Source of the DNA: Gemmatimonadota bacterium
Lineage (GTDB): Bacteria; Gemmatimonadota; Gemmatimonadetes; Gemmatimonadales; GWC2-71-9
DNA: 53,779 bases
Reading direction: 5' to 3'
NCBI GenBank assembly: GCA_039588295.1
Contig: JBDHAB010000029.1
Location: 1-53,779, forward strand
Shown: piece after piece, positions 8,581 through 17,443 of the stretch
Layout: each line of letters opens with the position of its first letter
Numbering within the stretch: position 1 is the stretch's first letter
Notes under the pieces: generated by a model
The model's input: only the letters and a program-made list of their open reading frames with translations
Databases searched by the model: none
What the model was told of the DNA's origin: nothing
Position numbers and translations under genes: made by a program

Positions 8581-10179
8581 TTACGCCACCGGTCCGGCCG
8601 CACGCACCTCGTCTGCCACCGCGCTCGAGTAGCGTGCAAAGTTCTCTCTGAACATCGCTGCCAGCTTTGCGGCTTGAGTGTCGTAGTGAGCTTGATCCGC
8701 CCAGGTCCCTCGCGGGTCGAGCAGCTTCGCCGGTACCCCGGGGACCTCGCGTGGCACCTCCACTCCGAACACCGGGTCGCGACGAGTCGGCGTGTCGCGC
8801 AGGGTCCCGTCGAGGGCAGCACGGACCATCGCGCGAGTGAACGGCAGGTTCATTCGATGGCCCTCACCGTACGGGCCGCCAGTCCAGCCGGTGTTGAGCA
8901 ACCAGCACCGCACGTCGTGACGGTCGATCCGCTCTCCCAGCATCGTGGCATAGACATTCGGATGCCGTGGCAGGAACGGTGCTCCGAAACACGCGCTGAA
9001 CGTGGCCTGGGGCTCCGTGACGCCGCGTTCGGTACCGGCAACTTTGGCCGTATACCCGGAGAGGAAGTGATACATGGCCTGTTCGGGTGTGAGCCGTGCG
9101 AGCGGAGGTAGGACGCCGAACGCATCGGCCGTGAGGAACACGATGGATTCGGGATGGCCGGCCTGTCCTTCGGGAAGATGGTTGGGAATAAAATGGATGG
9201 GATACGACGCCCGCGTGTTCTCGGTGATGGAGTCGTCGTTCAGATCGACCTGCCGTGTCGCGGGATCGATCACAACGTTCTCCAGAATGGTCCCGAACAT
9301 CTGCGTCGTGGCATGGATCTCTGGTTCACCCTCGGCGGACAGCCGAATGATCTTCGCGTAGCAGCCACCCTCGAAATTGAACACACCGCGATCACTCCAC
9401 CCGTGCTCGTCGTCGCCGATCAGCGATCGAGTTGGATCGGCAGACAACGTGGTCTTTCCAGTGCCGGAGAGACCGAAGAACAACGCGACATTCCCGTCGG
9501 AGCCGACGTTGGCGGAGCAGTGCATCGGCAGGATGCCGCGCGCGGGATACAGATGGTTCAAGATCGTGAACATCGACTTCTTCATCTCGCCGGCGTAGCG
9601 CGTGCCGCCAATGAGCACGGTGCGTTCAGCGAAATTGACGACGATGAACGTACCCCCGCGTGTGGCGTGGCGAGCGGGATCCGCTTTCAAGTCAGGTGCG
9701 TGAAGCACCGTGAAGTCAGGCGTGAACCCCTCGAGTTCTTGGAGCCCCGGTCGGAGGAACATGTTGTGCACGAACAGCGTGTGCCACGCGTTGGGTGTGA
9801 TGAACCGGACCGCTGTCCGGTAGACTGGATCCGCCCCGGCGTACACGTCCCGCACGAACAGTTCTTGTTGACCGGCGAGATAGGACAGGACGTCGCGTTT
9901 GAGGAGTGCGTAGTGCTCCAGGTTCATCGGTTGGTTCACGTCGCCCCACCAAATCTCGTGTTCCGATTCGGGTTCTCGGACGATGAACTTGTCGTTCGGC
10001 GACCGCCCGGTATGCGGAGTCGTGATGGAGATGAACGGGCCCCGCGCGACGATCTGACCTTCCTGCCGTTTGACGGCGGACTCGTAAAGCGCTGCGGGGG
10101 CGAGATTCCACCACACCTGACCGCGGGGATCGAGGCCCGGTGCGATGAAAGCGCCGGAGCGTGGGACGGATGTGCTCAT
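8581..10179 (-). CDS. pckA: Phosphoenolpyruvate carboxykinase (ATP)
   Basis: [48 protein letters not shown] and ENTRASYP motifs. Start placed at MSTSVPRS. Confidence 0.96.
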
Positions 10180-10332
10180 GATACCACGGCCGTTTCTCCT
10201 GCCTCGCCGAGGCGACGTGTCCGTGAGGGGCTGAGACCGACGTGACATGCCTCAGTCACGAAGTCCCACGAGTAGGGCGATAAAGGTAACACGTGACGAG
10301 CGCCGTGGAATCTCCGGGGCGCTCGGCTCTGG

Positions 10333-10995
10333 TTACGGAGGGGTACTGCTCCAAGGAAGGATATCTGAGGGAACATGGTACAGGGTCTGCACCGTCGCAC
10401 GGTCGCGGAGTGATGGAGTCGATACCTGGGGCTGCCCAAACATGAGATCCACAGGGTCGGCACTGTGTGCAAAGATGCCCAGCGAATGGCCGATTTCGTG
10501 CGTAGTGACACGTGCCAAACAGTTGACGATGTCACTCGGCTCGGGCCCGGAAAACCACCGCAACTCGATTTGCAGCCGCGATTCAAACTGTGGCTTGGCC
10601 AGACCCGCGTCGACTCTCGGGGGCACCAACGTGACCCCTTCGCAGACGATGCGAGGCGGGTCGTTCGTGAGCGGTGCGTCGGGCGGGGGAGAGCCGATCA
10701 ACTGGATCACCACGTCGGCAAGTGCCGAATCGAGCACTCGTTCACCGCGAAACTCGCCGTACAGGAACTGCTGCTGCCACGTGACGATGCCGCTCGCCAC
10801 GTATTCCGGAAGCTGTCCGACGGGCTCGACATAGTAGCGAACGGGGAGCGACGACGGTGGCCAGTGAAACACGGAGTCGGTCCCGGCCAGCCGAAATTCG
10901 TAGGGAGCCAGGCGCAGCGGCGTACCCGGTGTATCACAGGCTGTGAGCTGGACGGCAGCAGTCACGATCAGGAGCGCCGCACTAGGGCCGCGCAT
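10333..10995 (-). CDS. Matrixin-like (metzincin) zinc metalloprotease, lipoprotein
   Basis: Lipobox LTAC, HEIGHSLGIFAH zinc-binding motif, Met-turn DLM and D-x-x-T-x-x-x-LY tail. Confidence 0.85.
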   Translation of the reverse strand: MRGPSAALLIVTAAVQLTACDTPGTPLRLAPYEFRLAGTDSVFHWPPSSLPVRYYVEPVGQLPEYVASGIVTWQQQFLYGEFRGERVLDSALADVVIQLIGSPPPDAPLTNDPPRIVCEGVTLVPPRVDAGLAKPQFESRLQIELRWFSGPEPSDIVNCLARVTTHEIGHSLGIFAHSADPVDLMFGQPQVSTPSLRDRATVQTLYHVPSDILPWSSTPP

Positions 10996-11602
10996 CGGAC
11001 AGGCTCCTTCGGAAGGTCATCTCGATGCTGATCCGGTGGACGATGCGTTGACCAGTGACCCCGCTGGAGCGAAGCGCCTGCGTCCCGAATCGATGTGCAT
11101 CGTAGGCAATCTGCAACCCGATCGCCGTGCGGGCGCCGAACCGCCGCTCGGCGCGCACGGCGAGAGCGGCGGCGGCGAAGAGGGGAGCACCTTCCTGAAA
11201 CAGGGTTCCCACCTTGGCCTCGTCGCTCGGTGCGTACTTGATGGCGCCGATCGAGCCCTGCACCGACGCCCAGTCGTTGAGTTGGCGCCGCAGTCCCAAC
11301 GACCCACTCCACACCGTCATGGTCATGATACTGGTCTTCTCGTCTCCTTCACGGCGGGCGAGGTCGCCTCGCGTCCAGCGTACCCCAGCCAGCAGCTGCC
11401 ATGATGGGTCGAGCAGCGCTCCGATCGCGACGGTCGCGCTCGGCGCGATATCCGGTCTGACCGTGAGCTCCTGAACGATCGAGTCGCGAACGAGAATCGA
11501 GCTTCCGAGCGCCCCGAGGCCCACCTCGACGGCCACCTGCGCTACGGCTGCAGCTGGCATCGCGCCGACGAGGACCCCCACCAGGGCCGCCGTCGGTCTC
11601 AT
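10982..11602 (-). CDS. Secreted protein, probable small outer-membrane beta-barrel
   Basis: Signal peptide (AVA-Q) and alternating hydrophobic strands. The start overlaps the permease stop (ATGA). Confidence 0.65.
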   Translation of the reverse strand: MRPTAALVGVLVGAMPAAAVAQVAVEVGLGALGSSILVRDSIVQELTVRPDIAPSATVAIGALLDPSWQLLAGVRWTRGDLARREGDEKTSIMTMTVWSGSLGLRRQLNDWASVQGSIGAIKYAPSDEAKVGTLFQEGAPLFAAAALAVRAERRFGARTAIGLQIAYDAHRFGTQALRSSGVTGQRIVHRISIEMTFRRSLSDARP

Positions 11603-12441
11603 GCCACGCGCACCCGTATGACTCGCCGCAGTGCAAACGCCACGATGAGTGCGACGGCGAAGGCACAGACGACCACCGGTCCGGTGGGGAGGTCAACCTG
11701 GTACGACACGAAGAGTCCGAGGATCGTCGCCAACGTTCCCGTGCTCCAAGCGATCACGAGCATGCGACCCGGTGTGGAGGCGAAGAGGAACGCGATCACC
11801 GCGGGGATCACCAGAAAGCTGAATACCACGAGGACTCCGGCGATCGCTACCGAGGACGTTACGACCACACCAAACAGCGCGTAGAACAGGAAGTCCCACC
11901 ACGCGATCTTCCATTTCTCCTCACGCGCCCTGCGGGGCTCCAACGAGATCGTGAGAAACCGCTTGCGCAACAGCCAATGCACCCCGCCGATTGCGCCGTA
12001 CACGAGCGCGGTCTTGGCAATTGAGGGCCACGTGACCCACAGGAGACTGCCGGTCAACAATTGCTCGACGTGCTCCGAGCCGCGTGGTGCTTGTGCGGCC
12101 AGCAGTATGGTGCCGGCGGACGCCACGACGTACACGATCCCGATGATCGCCTCCTGGGGTATCCGGTCTTGCTCCATCCGCGTGATGCTGAATACTGCGG
12201 CAGCCACCAGGGTGGTACCCAATCCAATGAGATAGCCGGCCTCGGAGGATTGCAGGCCGAGCAGCGACCCGAGCGCATCTGCCAGTCCGAGCCCCGCAGC
12301 GGCCCATCCCAACGCGGCGACCTGAGCCAGCGCGAGATCGACGAAGATGACTCCTCGTGCGATGATGTGGATTCCCAGATAGCCATGGATGCCAACCAGG
12401 ATCAGCGAGGCCACGAGGGCCGGTAGCATCAATTCGAGCAT
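11599..12441 (-). CDS. Metal (Zn/Mn) ABC transporter permease, ABC-3 family
   Basis: GIHIIARGVIFVDLALAQVAALG, PQEAIIG, GVLVVFSFLVIPA and DLPTGP motifs; multiple TMs. Confidence 0.9.
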   Translation of the reverse strand: MLELMLPALVASLILVGIHGYLGIHIIARGVIFVDLALAQVAALGWAAAGLGLADALGSLLGLQSSEAGYLIGLGTTLVAAAVFSITRMEQDRIPQEAIIGIVYVVASAGTILLAAQAPRGSEHVEQLLTGSLLWVTWPSIAKTALVYGAIGGVHWLLRKRFLTISLEPRRAREEKWKIAWWDFLFYALFGVVVTSSVAIAGVLVVFSFLVIPAVIAFLFASTPGRMLVIAWSTGTLATILGLFVSYQVDLPTGPVVVCAFAVALIVAFALRRVIRVRVA

Positions 12442-12538
12442 ACGATATCCGTTGTGCTAAGACCCTCGAGGTCTCCCCGCCACCCCCGTGCGCTCGAGCA
12501 CCATGTGCATCACTCGATCGCCCGTCCGTACCGCGACG

Positions 12539-13636
12539 CTATTCGTTCGACGCCGGCTGACGGTATGCCTCCGCCAGCGCCGAGACCCACCGGTCCACCA
12601 GCGCAAAGTAATCGGTGACGGTATCCTCACCGTCGACGTGCTCGGGAACGATGACCGCCCTCGCCCCCGTACGGGAGGCCACACGCTCCACCTGCGATGC
12701 GTTGAAGTAGTTCGCCGCGAACACGACGGGGATGTCGGCCTCTCGGATGAAATCGATGACACGCCGCACGTGTCCCGGTGACGGTGGAATGCCGGGCTTG
12801 GGCTCGACGTACATCGCGCACTCCACTTGGAAGCGCGCGTTGAAGTAGGCCCAGTTCTTGTGGTAGCACACCATGCGCCGGCCGCGGAACGGCTCGGCCT
12901 GCGCGAGCCATCCGCCGAGATAGTCGGTGAGTGGCCGCTCTTCAAAGGTCTCGCTGCGCGCGAAATTCCAAAACCGGTGTGTACGCGCGAGGTCGAAGAG
13001 CGTTTCCTTGCCGAGCATCTCGACGATCCGATCGCCGAACAACCGTCGCATGACTTGATTCTCAAACTCCGTGAGATTGGCCCGATAGACCGCCGCGTTG
13101 CGGCTGTCCACCTGTTCGAGGCCCCCGACGATATTGCGGGCGATGATGATCGCGTTGATCGGGTCGGTATGGATGTGCGGATTGCCGAACACATGAATGT
13201 CCCCGCCAGACCGAGACACGTTCTGCGGGACATCGAGTAACGTGACACCGGCGTACGCGGCGACATGTCCCGATGCCCCCTCGAGCACCTGGGCATTGTT
13301 TGCTCGGTCGAGCAACACTGGCACCCAGAGTTCGAGATCCAGGCCTGTTGCCACGAACAGGTCTGCGCGCTGGAGCAGCGCGGCGAAGCTCGGTCGCGGG
13401 GTGACGAAGTGCGCATCCTCATCACCGCGTGCGATCGCGCGAATGTTCACCAACGGGCCAGCGACGTGCCGCGCGATGGCGGCATACGTGGGCAGCGTGG
13501 TGACCACGTTGATCTTGTCCTGCGCCGAGATTGGCGGTGCGAGGGCGGACCACAGTGCCGCTGCACCCCAAAGGGTCAGCCACGGGGAGGGCCCGCGTCG
13601 GCCATCCGTTCGCACACACGTGTTGCGGTGCATCAT
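12539..13636 (-). CDS. Metal (Zn/Mn) ABC transporter substrate-binding protein, ZnuA/TroA family
   Basis: Signal peptide; VVTT, DAHFV, GLDLELW, GDIHVFGNPHIHTDP, YHKNWAY and EPKPGIPPS motifs. GAGGA RBS before ATG at 13636. Confidence 0.92.
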   Translation of the reverse strand: MMHRNTCVRTDGRRGPSPWLTLWGAAALWSALAPPISAQDKINVVTTLPTYAAIARHVAGPLVNIRAIARGDEDAHFVTPRPSFAALLQRADLFVATGLDLELWVPVLLDRANNAQVLEGASGHVAAYAGVTLLDVPQNVSRSGGDIHVFGNPHIHTDPINAIIIARNIVGGLEQVDSRNAAVYRANLTEFENQVMRRLFGDRIVEMLGKETLFDLARTHRFWNFARSETFEERPLTDYLGGWLAQAEPFRGRRMVCYHKNWAYFNARFQVECAMYVEPKPGIPPSPGHVRRVIDFIREADIPVVFAANYFNASQVERVASRTGARAVIVPEHVDGEDTVTDYFALVDRWVSALAEAYRQPASNE

Positions 13637-13647
13637 AGTCGTCCTCT

Positions 13648-14958
13648 TCAATACGTCTCGTGCTTATGCGGCCCGATCGCCCACACGGCCTGCAGAAGCA
13701 GCGTGTGGTTGCTCTCGCCACCTTCCGGCCGCACGAAGTTGTACTGCAACCGCAACCGCACCCACTCGCTCTGCCACCAGCTGAGGCTTGGTGCCAGCTG
13801 CAGGATTCCGGTGTCGGTGCCGTAGCCTTCCACGTAATCGGCACGCACCCCGGCGATCCACCGGCGATTGAGCCGGAAACTGGCTTGCGCATACCCACCG
13901 TGACCGGACTCAGTGACGCCGTTCACTTCCTGTTCCGCGAAGTACCACTCGGACTTGAGCAGGAGTTCGCGGTACAACGCGCGGCCCGCCGGCGTCCAGC
14001 GGAAGGCGACGTCGATGCCGAGCAAACGCGAGTCCAGGAGCGCGTCGTCGTTCTCCCCGACGACGCCGGTTGCTCCGAATTGGACGAAGCTGTTGCCTCC
14101 ACCAACCTCCCAGAAGCTCTGGATCCGGCCGAGGTAACTCAGCTCGTTCCCGTCGGCGAAGAGGGCCTCGTTGTCACCGCGGGCGAGTTCGAAGGTTGCC
14201 GTCTGGGTCGATGGGCCGAGGCGCAGCGACGGAAACGTCACCGAGGCGCCCGCCTGAATGAGCCCGTCTTCGCCCAGGAACGTGACGGCTGCGAGCGGTC
14301 GGTCGACCTCCATCAGGGCATGGGTGTGCCACCGGTTGTAAAGACCGATTTCTTGGCGGAACTTGCCGACCTTGACGCCGAGCCTGCCGGGCAGACCCAC
14401 CCAATAGAGGTAGCCCTCCTCGATCGCGAACCCGCCGTGGGCCTCGCCTTCCGGGTCGTCCTCCGCGAAGCCGGCGATTGCAACATCCTCCTCGCGGGTC
14501 ACGAAGATCTTGGTCCGCGTGTACGGATCCAAGGCAGATTGAAACGAGAACTCGAACTCTCTCGGTACGGCAGTCACGTTGCTGGACTCACCTGCCGGCG
14601 CCACGAAGTTGCCCACGAAATCGCCGGTGACGCTGATCTCAGGGTTCAGAATACTGAGGTTCCGCGTGCGACTGTCCTGTCCTCCGACCGAGTCCGAAGC
14701 CGGAGGCCGCTCAGCCGCTGCCCGCCGGGCGGCGGCGCGAAGTGCTGCAAGCTCATCTCGTGCGGCCGCTGTGTCCTGACCTTCACGCGCGAGCCGTTGG
14801 ATGATCCGCTCGAGGGAGTCGACTCGCGCCTTGAGCCGCCGAAGTTCTCGCAGCACGGAGTCGGCAGGCTCCGCACGCTGCTGGGCTTCCAGCGGATGCA
14901 CCTCTGCACCGGCGACGATAATCCCACATGCGATGAGCGGCCCAAGTCGGGCAATCAT
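13648..14958 (-). CDS. Outer-membrane porin-type beta-barrel with N-terminal coiled coil and His-containing C-terminus (metal-uptake associated)
   Basis: Signal peptide, coiled coil, NPEISVTGD, DPY, EEGY, GKFR..G.YN.WH.H and C-terminal IGPHKHETY. GGGAG RBS before ATG at 14958. Confidence 0.8.
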   Translation of the reverse strand: MIARLGPLIACGIIVAGAEVHPLEAQQRAEPADSVLRELRRLKARVDSLERIIQRLAREGQDTAAARDELAALRAAARRAAAERPPASDSVGGQDSRTRNLSILNPEISVTGDFVGNFVAPAGESSNVTAVPREFEFSFQSALDPYTRTKIFVTREEDVAIAGFAEDDPEGEAHGGFAIEEGYLYWVGLPGRLGVKVGKFRQEIGLYNRWHTHALMEVDRPLAAVTFLGEDGLIQAGASVTFPSLRLGPSTQTATFELARGDNEALFADGNELSYLGRIQSFWEVGGGNSFVQFGATGVVGENDDALLDSRLLGIDVAFRWTPAGRALYRELLLKSEWYFAEQEVNGVTESGHGGYAQASFRLNRRWIAGVRADYVEGYGTDTGILQLAPSLSWWQSEWVRLRLQYNFVRPEGGESNHTLLLQAVWAIGPHKHETY

Positions 14959-15035
14959 GTCCGTGCTCCCAAAGTTCTCGTGACTGGTTACGGCTGGCTG
15001 TCCCCAATGATCGAACGGGGACCGTGCAATCGTGG

Positions 15036-15371
15036 CTAGCGCCAGGGCGGTGCTCGAACCGTGTTGGCGAGAACGCGGGGGATGCGCCGGAGCAAGGTCT
15101 GATCGGTGAGCGGTGCCTCCGATGAGACCGCGACCGACCAGGGGCGGGCGACGCGCTGGGACACGTCGGCGAGATGAACCGCCCCTGCCAGGGTGCACGC
15201 GGGTCCGGCATGGACCGTCGGGCAGTCCTTGGAGTGCTCCGATTCCAGGGCCGCAGTCGAGTCCAGTGTCTCGGTCTCGGCGTGCAGGATCCCAGTACCG
15301 GCGACGACGCCGGCGTAGGCGAGCATGGAGAGGATCCCGGTGATCCGCCGGAGGAACGGTGCATGCGGCAT
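15036..15371 (-). CDS. Leader peptide with N-terminal TM/signal segment, His/Cys cluster and C-terminal RAPP motif (DUF2946/CruR-like arrest peptide)
   Basis: 111 aa: MPHAPFLRR-ITGILSMLAYAGVVAGTGIL-HAE...EHSKDCPTVHAGPACTLA...LANTVRAPPWR*. RAPP codons at 15045-15056. Alternative ATG at 15389. Confidence 0.8.
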   Translation of the reverse strand: MPHAPFLRRITGILSMLAYAGVVAGTGILHAETETLDSTAALESEHSKDCPTVHAGPACTLAGAVHLADVSQRVARPWSVAVSSEAPLTDQTLLRRIPRVLANTVRAPPWR

Positions 15372-15411
15372 AGAGGTGGTGGATACCATCCGAGGGGCCT
15401 GAGGTTCCGTC

Positions 15412-16506
15412 CTACTGACGTACCATCTCGAGCAGCCTCTGGCCGACACGCTCGTTCGATAGCAATCCGCCAAACTGCTCGTTTCCGGGTCCGACAGCGA
15501 AGATCGGCACCAACGCCGCGGTGTGGCCACCCGTGGTATAGCGAAGCGTGGGAGCTCCGGTGCTATCGGTGTGCACCGCGAGCCCTCCGGTCTCGTGATC
15601 GCCGAGCACGACGATGAGCGTTTCCGGATGTCGGCGGCGATACGCTACGGCGACTTCAATCGCCTCATCGAAGGCTCGCATCTCGGCTGCGATGATGTCG
15701 AACGGTTCGTTATGGTGCGCCTGGGTATCGGTCTCCTCGTTCTCCACCATGAGGAAGAAGCCGTCAGGATCACGGTCCAGGATCTCCAACGCCGTTTGGG
15801 TCATTCCTGCGAGCGTGGGGGCGCGGGCGCCGGCGAGCGGCATATCGCGCTCGGAGAAGAGTCCGAGCAGCGTACTGACGGTGTCGAGGCTCAGCGAAGT
15901 GAGTTCTGCGGCCGACTCGACATAGGTGTAGCGTGCTCTGAGCTGCGCAAGCACGCTTTCCGTGGTGTCGGTGCTTGCCAGCCGGAAGAAGCTGCGCCCA
16001 CCGCCCATGAGCACGGTGATGTCGTGCCGCGCCATTTGCCGGGCGACCTCGAGGTGGTCGCGAGCGGGATAGTGCGTGCAGAAAGCAGCCGGTGTAGCAT
16101 CCGTCAGTGCGGTCGTCGTAATGAGTCCCGAGGCCATGCCCCGTTCCATCCCTACCTCGAGCACGGTCGGACGTGGCTGCGAATCCGGACCCAGGCCCAA
16201 CGCTCGCATGACTGTTCGCGTTCCAGTAGCATAGGCAGTCGCAGCTGGCGCGCTACCCGTCACGAGATGGTTCGAGCCCCTGGTATCGACGAGACCGAAC
16301 GCCTCGAAATCGTCGACCGCGAGTCGTCCGATGGCGACTCGCGCAACGGTCCAGTGCCCCAACCCGGCGCCGTCGGCGACGAACAGAATGATGCGCGGAG
16401 GGGTATCGGAGTTCGGGGCTGATACCGGGGTTCCCGACGAGGACGTGCAACTTGCGATCAGGCAGGCCAGGACGGTTGCGCCCGGCAGCACGGAGCGTTT
16501 CTTCAT
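15412..16506 (-). CDS. Alkaline phosphatase (PhoA family), lipoprotein
   Basis: Lipobox IASC. ADG, GSAPAATA (catalytic Ser), DATPA, VE...D..AH, GDHETGG and GHT metal ligands are retained. Confidence 0.9.
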   Translation of the reverse strand: MKKRSVLPGATVLACLIASCTSSSGTPVSAPNSDTPPRIILFVADGAGLGHWTVARVAIGRLAVDDFEAFGLVDTRGSNHLVTGSAPAATAYATGTRTVMRALGLGPDSQPRPTVLEVGMERGMASGLITTTALTDATPAAFCTHYPARDHLEVARQMARHDITVLMGGGRSFFRLASTDTTESVLAQLRARYTYVESAAELTSLSLDTVSTLLGLFSERDMPLAGARAPTLAGMTQTALEILDRDPDGFFLMVENEETDTQAHHNEPFDIIAAEMRAFDEAIEVAVAYRRRHPETLIVVLGDHETGGLAVHTDSTGAPTLRYTTGGHTAALVPIFAVGPGNEQFGGLLSNERVGQRLLEMVRQ

Positions 16507-16600
16507 GTCAGTGCCCTGGATGTTTGAGGTAGATCACCTTACTGTCCAGCCCTCGATCGGTGGAGTCTGGTGCTCCGCCCGCCACCCAGCGGAGGTAGGA

Positions 16601-17443
16601 ATGGTTCGTCGTTGCTTGCTGGTCCTCGTTACCGCACTGCTTGTTATACCAGGGTCGGCTGCGCTGGCGCAAGATTCGACCGCCGCGCCACGGCTCAGGA
16701 TCCTCGTCGCGAATGACGACGGATTCCAAGCGCCCGGTCTGGTCGCGCTGGTCGATTCGCTGGTCACCATCGCCGATGTCGTGGTGGCTGCCCCGCTCAG
16801 CCAGCAGAGTGGCACGGGTCACGGCATCACCTTTCGCGAGCCGATCAAGGTGACCGACTTCGGCAATCGGTATGCCATCCCGTGGTACGCCATTGATGCC
16901 CGTCCGGCAACCTGTGTGCGCCTCGCGCTGACGACGTTGCTCGACTCGCTTCCCGACTTGGTGGTTTCGGGGATCAACACCGGTGACAACGTCGGGGTCT
17001 CCGCCTGGCTCTCGGGCACGGTGGCGGCAGCACGGGAAGCCGCCCTGCATGGCATTCCGGCGATCGCGGTCTCCGCCGGGTTGGGCCAATATCAGGACTA
17101 CCAGATCGCGGCTGGCTACATCCGCCAATTGGTCGAGCAGCTCCTCGCCGATGGGACGCTCAAGAAGCGGCCGTTGCTCAACGTGAACGTGCCGGCCGGA
17201 GGACCGAGGGGCGTCAAGGTATCGGGGATGAGCCTGATGCTGGGCACCGAAACGTATGACGACCGACTGTCACCCCGAGGCCAACGCTACTTCTGGGACA
17301 CCTGGTCGCCCCCGGAGGACGACACGCTGGAAGGCACCGACCTCTATTGGTACTCGCGCGGTTACATCACGGTGACCCCGCTCAAGATCGATCAGACGGA
17401 TACCGCCGTGATGAAGGCGCTCGGCATCCGGCTCGAGAAGTAG
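16601..17443 (+). CDS. surE: 5'/3'-nucleotidase SurE with Sec signal peptide
   Basis: ILVANDDG..APG, QSGTG, VVSGINTGDN, SGTVAAAREA and VTPL motifs. GGAGG RBS. N-terminal signal MVRRCLLVLVTALLVIPGSAALA. Confidence 0.9.
   Translation: MVRRCLLVLVTALLVIPGSAALAQDSTAAPRLRILVANDDGFQAPGLVALVDSLVTIADVVVAAPLSQQSGTGHGITFREPIKVTDFGNRYAIPWYAIDARPATCVRLALTTLLDSLPDLVVSGINTGDNVGVSAWLSGTVAAAREAALHGIPAIAVSAGLGQYQDYQIAAGYIRQLVEQLLADGTLKKRPLLNVNVPAGGPRGVKVSGMSLMLGTETYDDRLSPRGQRYFWDTWSPPEDDTLEGTDLYWYSRGYITVTPLKIDQTDTAVMKALGIRLEK

Follow-up and report, generated by a model that had tools for sequence, protein, structure and literature searches.

A conserved leader–porin–binding protein–permease module from Gemmatimonadota as a putative zinc importer without an ATPase

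Introduction

The membrane subunit of an ATP-binding cassette (ABC) importer is usually assumed to need its ATPase. A 53,779-nucleotide stretch of DNA from a Gemmatimonadota bacterium (GenBank assembly GCA_039588295.1, contig JBDHAB010000029.1; hereafter the window) raises the question of how a metal importer could work without one. The window corresponds to contig C29 in a genome (G000) of 4.5 Mb that is 96% complete, and the close homologues of its porin carry the label Gemmatimonadales. Six open reading frames (ORFs), all on the minus strand, occupy positions 10333–15371. They encode, in the order of transcription, a small leader ending in the motif RAPP, an outer-membrane porin, a substrate-binding protein (SBP), an ABC-3-fold permease, a small β-barrel protein, and a matrixin-like lipoprotein. 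The ORF coordinates confirm the arrangement given in the initial annotation, with gaps of 77, 11, and 97 nucleotides followed by overlaps of 4 and 14 nucleotides, and genes for an ABC ATPase, TonB, or Fur are indeed absent from the stretch.

We propose, with a probability of roughly 55%, that the first four genes constitute a leader-switched high-affinity zinc importer, which is derived from an ABC transporter, has lost its ATPase, and would function without ATP hydrolysis. The proposal builds on gene content, conservation, and protein folds, from which metal binding, transport, the energy source, and ribosome stalling are predicted. If it is true, a natural clade without the ATPase, several lineages of which have lost the docking segment as well, would directly reveal what ATP adds to the import of metals and by what route pumps turn into gated carriers.

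A conserved four-gene module

The locus was compared with the genomes of 60 relatives from the order Gemmatimonadales, 34 of which encode the SBP, and 35 loci were fetched from the SBP-positive genomes. The order porin–SBP–permease is present in 31 of these loci, the remaining four being truncated by contig ends, and the SBP and permease genes are separated by 0–111 nucleotides. The module, including the leader, also occurs in a set of genome contigs, nearly all of them from Acidobacteriota, and in a set of metagenome loci; each set comprises the best 80 of at least about 590 confirmed matches. It is almost certain that the leader–porin–SBP–permease module is real, and the neighborhood analysis of Gemmatimonadales, Acidobacteriota, and metagenome loci bears out the earlier claim that it is conserved without an ATPase or a Zur box. 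Two unpublished genomes were included in the comparisons: G021, which contributes one row to alignments A1–A3, belongs to the 34 module genomes, and G131 to the 151 genomes sampled from the phylum. No conclusion rests on either of them.

The description of the locus as an undescribed system could not be upheld, as the leader resembles CruR and the DUF2946 family and the core of the module is homologous to omr-znuA2-znuB2 of Vibrio (VP_RS21430/21425/21420; the SBP is Vpa1307). The Vibrio cluster likewise consists of porin, SBP, and permease genes, arranged identically and without an ATPase (PMC9817125, PMC3794297). The available text of these papers labels the pore TonB-dependent and is silent on the missing ATPase. 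The porin, SBP, and permease of V. campbellii match the profiles of the window families with E values of 2.6e-42, 3.9e-54, and 3.6e-33, respectively, and the V. campbellii SBP agrees, as read by eye, with the residues that the mutagenesis primers for Vpa1307 encode. The Vibrio cluster has Zur boxes and no RAPP leader, whereas the window has the leader and no Zur-like box. Furthermore, the docking segment is full length in the window permease, whereas the Vibrio permease has 19 residues fewer. Repeats upstream of the V. campbellii cluster are Zur-box-like.

Search for the missing ATPase

The window genome encodes a single ABC-3 permease and 40 ABC ATPase ORFs. A ZnuC profile was calibrated with ZnuC-type proteins from outside its seed, which scored 273, 222, and 221 bits (the latter two with a local profile). 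No orphan ZnuC was found in the 96% complete genome; the ATPase nearest to ZnuC is BtuD, which is encoded inside a BtuBCDF operon. As a control, the ATPase gene is adjacent to the permease gene in eight of eight canonical ABC-3 loci of the order. No co-oriented metal ATPase gene is present in the best 80 genome-contig and best 80 metagenome loci, many of which are short, or at the Vibrio campbellii and Sulfurovum loci. Seventeen further loci with a family permease from the phylum sample also contain no ATPase. A conserved fifth gene that could serve as an energizer was not found among the first downstream ORFs, which were available for 70 of 124 loci.

Some ATPases in the vicinity of the module were considered and rejected. 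Those flanking 8 of the 35 relative loci lie several kilobases away; five are FtsE, one is of the ABC-2 type, and two at locus edges are unclassified. The only Acidobacteriota ATPase to score high with the ZnuC profile is encoded on the opposite strand and is of the soluble type, with two domains.

For 31 genomes that have the module but no canonical ZnuABC, the top hit of the ZnuC profile is of the BtuD/FecE type in 27, unrelated in two, and absent in two, and all of these hits score 176 bits or less. Genome G169, which is a single contig and 100% complete, contains the four module genes, no other ABC-3 permease, and no FecCD permease, and its nearest ATPase is LptB. In this one genome, type II importer ATPases are absent altogether.

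An ATPase-bearing sister operon

Permeases of the ATPase-less family occur in 68 of the 151 Gemmatimonadota genomes sampled (matches of 240 bits or more). A related permease scoring 166–173 bits is present in three of the 151. In all three loci (L259, G132:C171; L261, G168:C21; L260, G084:C91), the gene of an AztA/ZnuC-like ATPase directly precedes that of the permease, and two of the loci are complete leader–porin–SBP–ATPase–permease operons. Orthologues of this ATPase (77% or more) are present only in the same three genomes and in none of the other 148.

The sister permeases have a canonical coupling segment. In a quick tree of 34 rows with a midpoint root, they are placed between the canonical and ATPase-less rows, and the latter form one side of a branch with a support of 99. 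The simplest account would be a single loss of the ATPase, since the sister operon still has it, together with the gain of Asp35 in the permease and a docking segment that eroded repeatedly afterwards. The direction of the loss depends on the use of the canonical permeases as the outgroup. The sister operon provides a natural, ATP-driven matched control for the ATPase-less clade.

Permease and energy coupling

The permease gene (11599–12441, minus strand) matches PF00950 with an E value of 1.2e-31. In the available text of PMC12236471, the coupling helix of ZnuB spans residues 154–162, and the double mutant D36A-H40A loses its function. The D36-x3-H40 motif of ZnuB is replaced by F-x-D35-x4-Q40 in the window permease. 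The F-x-D-x4-Q motif is present in 27/27, 81/81, 120/120, and 115/120 proteins of four family sets. Conversely, D-x3-H is present in ten of ten canonical rows, and in none of 27 Gemmatimonadales and none of 81 Acidobacteriota permeases.

The segment expected to dock to an ATPase is altered as well. The span from transmembrane helix 5 through the coupling helix to transmembrane helix 6 measures 70–75 residues in ten canonical permeases, 67 in G169 and two others, 56 in 119 of 120 Sulfurovum-like proteins, and 51–53 in Vibrio/Shewanella-like proteins (118 of 120) and metagenome loci (79 of 80). The docking segment is 15–19 residues shorter in two lineages. In the window permease, the coupling segment is full length and its conserved Gly is replaced by Lys. 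The model of the Vibrio permease superimposes on PsaC with a Z score of 23.1 and a root-mean-square deviation (r.m.s.d.) of 3.3. Homologues from culturable organisms are available in Vibrio and Shewanella. No description of an ATPase-less permease clade was found in the literature covered, which consisted mostly of open papers.

In other classes of the phylum (L253–L258, L271, and L272), and also in L145, there are two tandem permease genes. One of the two often has an altered coupling segment, which suggests that the tandem permeases may form a heterodimer.

The same importer could employ an ATPase encoded elsewhere, BtuD being the best candidate, and thus be an ordinary type II transporter with a shared motor. 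BtuD is not only the nearest ATPase but also almost universal in the order, the coupling segment is full length in the window and in most Gemmatimonadota and Acidobacteriota, and Vibrio has its own znuABC. However, the closed genome G169 contains neither ZnuC nor FecCD/BtuD. In addition, two lineages carry deletions of 15–19 residues and a third a deletion of four residues, the coupling-helix Gly is changed to Lys in the window permease, and the ATPase of the sister operon has no orthologue in trans. We consider borrowing unlikely, and of the two energy options named in the initial annotation, an ATPase in trans or another mode of coupling, it is the weaker. That no ATPase at all participates in transport appears reasonably likely.

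Alternatively, the permease may no longer translocate its substrate, and instead anchor or unload the SBP, thereby keeping periplasmic zinc available to zinc enzymes that the cell exports. This would agree with the replacement of ZnuB His40 by Gln and the shift of Asp36 by one position, since the D36A-H40A variant of ZnuB is non-functional, and with the nature of both flanks of the module in the window, an alkaline phosphatase and a matrixin, which are predicted zinc enzymes. The zinc-enzyme neighbors are not conserved, however, and Vpa1307 supports growth in the presence of a zinc chelator. The ATPase-bearing sister permeases also lack both residues (FVGAALAQ), and therefore the loss of these residues does not imply the loss of transport. 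A permease that does not translocate seems very improbable.

The window system would work like ZnuABC with a porin and like CruR in its control. The absence of an ATPase and the altered metal site nevertheless place it outside ZnuABC, and its leader is no more than CruR-like. It has the SBP and permease folds of the ABC-3, cluster A-I importers ZnuABC, PsaBCA, and AztABC, but differs from them in having no ATPase, no D-x3-H motif, and a dedicated porin.

An OprP-like porin

The porin gene (13648–14958, minus strand) encodes 436 residues with a signal-like N-terminus and the C-terminal sequence GPHKHETY, and has no match in Pfam. The predicted structure, with a predicted local distance difference test score of 82, consists of two long N-terminal helices and a 16-strand barrel; the last four residues score below 50. 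Its best structural match is OprP (Z score 28.9, r.m.s.d. 3.2, 302 aligned residues), whereas TonB receptors reach Z scores of 12.7 or less. The length, the 16 strands, the N-terminal helices, and the match to OprP rule out a TonB-dependent receptor, which would have a 22-strand barrel and a plug. Because the pore is a porin, the absence of TonB from the locus is expected, and not the notable feature it had been taken for. Elsewhere in the genome, seven TonB_C proteins score above the cut-off.

The porins OprP/OprO and DcaP share with the window porin the 16-strand barrel and an N-terminal extension, but are only 8–13% identical to it, and conserved histidines replace their known anion-selective residues. 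H211, H213, and the C-terminal H431 are invariant in 28 porin rows. The family is large, with 1483 clusters at an E value of 1e-30 or better, and if our reading is true, the label "zinc-regulated TonB-dependent receptor" should be corrected to a porin family. In G034, the porin gene carries a frameshift close to the 3′ end (L052, 5449–6640), which reflects either an assembly error or decay.

Binding protein and cargo metal

The SBP (12539–13636, minus strand) belongs to cluster A-I, subfamily Vpa1307/ZnuA2, and matches PF01297 with an E value of 3.6e-44. It contains an insertion of about 41 residues, and H76, H148, H154, H259, E278, and H289 are invariant. The three histidine ligands expected of a cluster A-I SBP (H76, H154, and H259) are thus all conserved, together with two additional histidines, and there is no conserved fourth Asp/Glu ligand. 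The module very probably imports a metal.

The cargo is probably zinc, by analogy with Vibrio, whose homologues provide the chief, indirect evidence. According to the available text of PMC9817125, omr, znuA2, and znuB2 are in the predicted Zur regulon and are induced 1033-, 543-, and 283-fold in zinc deficiency. His69 and His148 of Vpa1307, which is of this SBP subfamily, were needed for growth in TPEN, as reported in the accessible part of PMC3794297.

The architecture may be right and the cargo copper, nickel, or cobalt, in which case the leader would sense that metal. The characterized leaders CruR and CutF sense copper. A CxxC motif with the first Cys 47–49 residues before the Arg of RAPP, as in CruR (49), is present in 51 of 52 Acidobacteriota leaders, and the SBP has two extra invariant histidines and lacks a conserved fourth acidic ligand. 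On the other hand, the three Vibrio homologues all belong to the Zur regulon and are induced by zinc starvation, the leaders of the window and seven congeners have a His-Cys-His-Cys cluster and no second Cys of CxxC, and no copper-chaperone family is present among the 70 first downstream ORFs. We regard a metal other than zinc as having a small chance of being the cargo.

RAPP leader and control of the operon

The leader gene (15036–15371, minus strand) encodes a CruR/DUF2946-like peptide of 111 residues, which has an export-like hydrophobic N-terminal segment (read from the alignment), contains the motif R106-A-P-P, and ends in RAPPWR. An ORF with a C-terminal R[AG]PP precedes the porin gene in 26 of 30 Gemmatimonadales loci with sufficient upstream DNA, including the window; of the other four, one has RSPP and three are leaderless. 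With a chance expectation of 0.04 such ORFs per 960-nucleotide window in this genome, the conservation of the leader exceeds chance. Leaders are also present in 52 of 65 genome-contig loci (nearly all Acidobacteriota) and 27 of 30 metagenome loci with upstream DNA. C59, R106, P108, and P109 are invariant in 52 leaders. Eighteen of 52 aligned leaders match PF11162 (DUF2946) weakly, at E values of 1 or less (best 1.9e-5), and the window leader has no match to PF11162 or any other Pfam family.

The nearest characterized relatives are CruR (Bp2923) of Bordetella pertussis and CutF of Rhodobacter capsulatus, each, like the window leader, a small protein with an export-like N-terminus encoded by the first gene of a metal operon. 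The available text of PMC9426467 states that the CxxC motif of CruR lies 45 residues before RAPP, that copper relieves ribosome stalling and Rho then terminates transcription, and that the signal peptide is dispensable. CutF senses periplasmic copper with a logic opposite to that of CruR, according to the part of the preprint available (bioRxiv 10.1101/2025.02.05.636593). The window leader shares with CruR a Cys 47 residues before the C-terminal RAPP, and Rho is present in the genome as two Rho-like genes (C6:18243–19484 and C15:25607–26719), one of which scores below the family cut-off. It differs from CruR and CutF in having C59-T-L-A in place of CxxC, so that the first Cys is at the matching distance and the second is lost, and in possessing two histidines and a further Cys (H46-x3-C50-x3-H54-x4-C59, within 15036–15371, minus strand); seven other leaders of the genus have the same cluster. 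Downstream of the window leader are a porin, an SBP, and a permease, and the metal is likely zinc, whereas CruR and CutF precede a TonB transporter or a copper oxidase. By analogy with these systems, the leader is highly likely to regulate the genes that follow it.

The expected control site is the 77-nucleotide spacer between the leader stop and the porin start (14959–15035, minus strand); the spacers of relatives are 17–233 nucleotides long. Single-sequence fold predictions gave no fold shared among the relatives' spacers. No Rfam match near the gathering score was found in positions 10000–17000, which argues against a riboswitch or another known RNA, and there is no match to a sigma-70 promoter upstream. 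A Zur-box-like site was also not found upstream of the operon, the best candidate having five mismatches to a 15-nucleotide box pattern. The Fur family (PF01475) has no match in the window genome or in seven of its eight congeners (eight of nine genomes of the genus). The genus is unusual in this respect, as matches occur in 47 of 61 genomes across the order.

A source table in PMC12992588 contains nine rows in which RAPP ORFs precede genes of a "zinc-regulated TonB-dependent receptor", and the available text of that paper leaves these rows undiscussed. No description of a zinc-sensing RAPP leader was found in the literature covered, mostly open papers and, for the CruR and Vibrio studies, the available main text. 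If the window leader does sense zinc, metal sensing by RAPP leaders extends from copper to zinc.

Three minor features of the leader region were observed. A −10-like hexamer (TATACT, TATCCT, or TATATT) lies 5–9 nucleotides before the leader ATG in the window (15372–15390) and at the same position in L032, L035, L037, L038, L041, L051, L063, and L064; because of this spacing, translation of the leader may start on a leaderless mRNA. Two of the three loci that lack the leader (L048, L053, and L065) have GAGTTAGCCTGGA just upstream of the porin gene, which is faintly similar to a DtxR-type site. The Sulfurovum leader (L167, 2441–2797) ends in HAPP, and its distance from CxxC to the motif is longer than in the others.

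Proposed mechanism

The route of zinc into the cell can be outlined as follows. Zinc would diffuse through the histidine-bearing porin, which has a modeled fold and a presumed selectivity. The SBP presumably binds the ion by the conserved His76, His154, and His259, perhaps also His148 and His289, in the manner suggested by Vpa1307. The loaded SBP would then dock on a permease dimer and release the ion. Moving down the membrane potential, the ion may enter the zinc-buffered cytoplasm, Asp35 serving as a ligand within the membrane, without ATP being hydrolyzed. Proton coupling at Asp35 could be an alternative energy source. When the metal is scarce, the ribosome is expected to stall at RAPP, as in CruR, and the operon would be expressed. 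Binding of the metal to the His/Cys cluster 47–60 residues upstream of RAPP would release the stall, and Rho would end transcription.

The membrane folds of the TRAP (tripartite ATP-independent periplasmic) and tripartite tricarboxylate transporter (TTT) families are unrelated to the ABC type II fold, which the membrane part of the window system has. The principle proposed here, SBP-dependent uptake without ATP hydrolysis, is that of TRAP and TTT transporters (available text of PMC8276074). We tentatively suggest, with somewhat less confidence than even odds, that the module represents a widespread class of SBP-dependent metal transporters with an ABC type II fold and no nucleotide-binding domain, which would have a single origin from an ABC ancestor surviving as the sister operon, and a zinc-sensing RAPP arrest peptide in place of Zur.

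Several observations weigh against an ATP-independent, leader-controlled zinc importer. The genome-wide ATPase searches scored only the best first-look candidates, and the trees are quick trees with ten canonical rows. The FecCD permease is present in 58 of 61 relatives, and therefore borrowing of BtuD is compatible with co-occurrence in most genomes. A transmembrane helix 5–6 span of 71–72 residues is kept by the window permease, all 27 Gemmatimonadales permeases, and 77 of 81 from Acidobacteriota; most of these full-span permeases keep the Ala and Gly of the coupling helix. The modeled Vibrio permease retains a five-residue helix at the place of the coupling helix. Transcriptional control is possible, as G000 contains two DtxR-family genes, and the only DUF2946 leaders known to have been tested sense copper (PMC9426467, bioRxiv 10.1101/2025.02.05.636593). 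The genome also encodes ZIP and NRAMP transporters, so the cell is not dependent on the module for metal. In Vibrio, znuA2 single and znuA znuA2 double deletions grew like the wild type, and the role of znuA2 was minor and visible when zrgA was deleted (available text of PMC9817125).

Bystander genes and flanking features

The small β-barrel gene (10982–11602, minus strand) has a weak match to PF13505, below the cut-off. The matrixin-like lipoprotein gene (10333–10995, minus strand) scores 23.9 bits against PF00413, for which the cut-off is 24, and encodes an LTAC lipobox and the motif HExxHxxGxxxH (HEIGHSLGIFAH). As their ORFs overlap, the two genes are probably co-transcribed with the module in the window.

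The initial annotation had counted both as members of the system, in which case the barrel and the matrixin could liberate protein-bound zinc and supply it to the importer. The overlaps of 4 and 14 nucleotides would fit such a six-gene system, and so would the observation that 15 of the 23 relatives with both the module and a matrixin have the matrixin gene no farther than about 1.5 kb from that of the permease. However, the two genes do not track the module across genomes. Among the 60 relatives, 23 have the module and a matrixin (E value below 1e-18), 11 the module alone, 12 a matrixin alone, and 14 neither. Blocks of barrel, matrixin, and phosphoenolpyruvate carboxykinase (PEPCK) genes, or of the latter two, occur in other genomes without the module nearby, and none of 162 loci outside Gemmatimonadales has a barrel or matrixin match. 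The barrel and matrixin genes are passengers of the conserved module, and a functional six-gene system is highly improbable.

An alkaline phosphatase lipoprotein gene (15412–16506) is located on the same strand, 40 nucleotides upstream of the leader, and is kept in this position in the genus of the window, G016, and G032. At the other end of the operon, an inverted repeat with 24-nucleotide arms (10286–10336) overlaps the matrixin stop codon and may mark the end of the transcript before the PEPCK gene.

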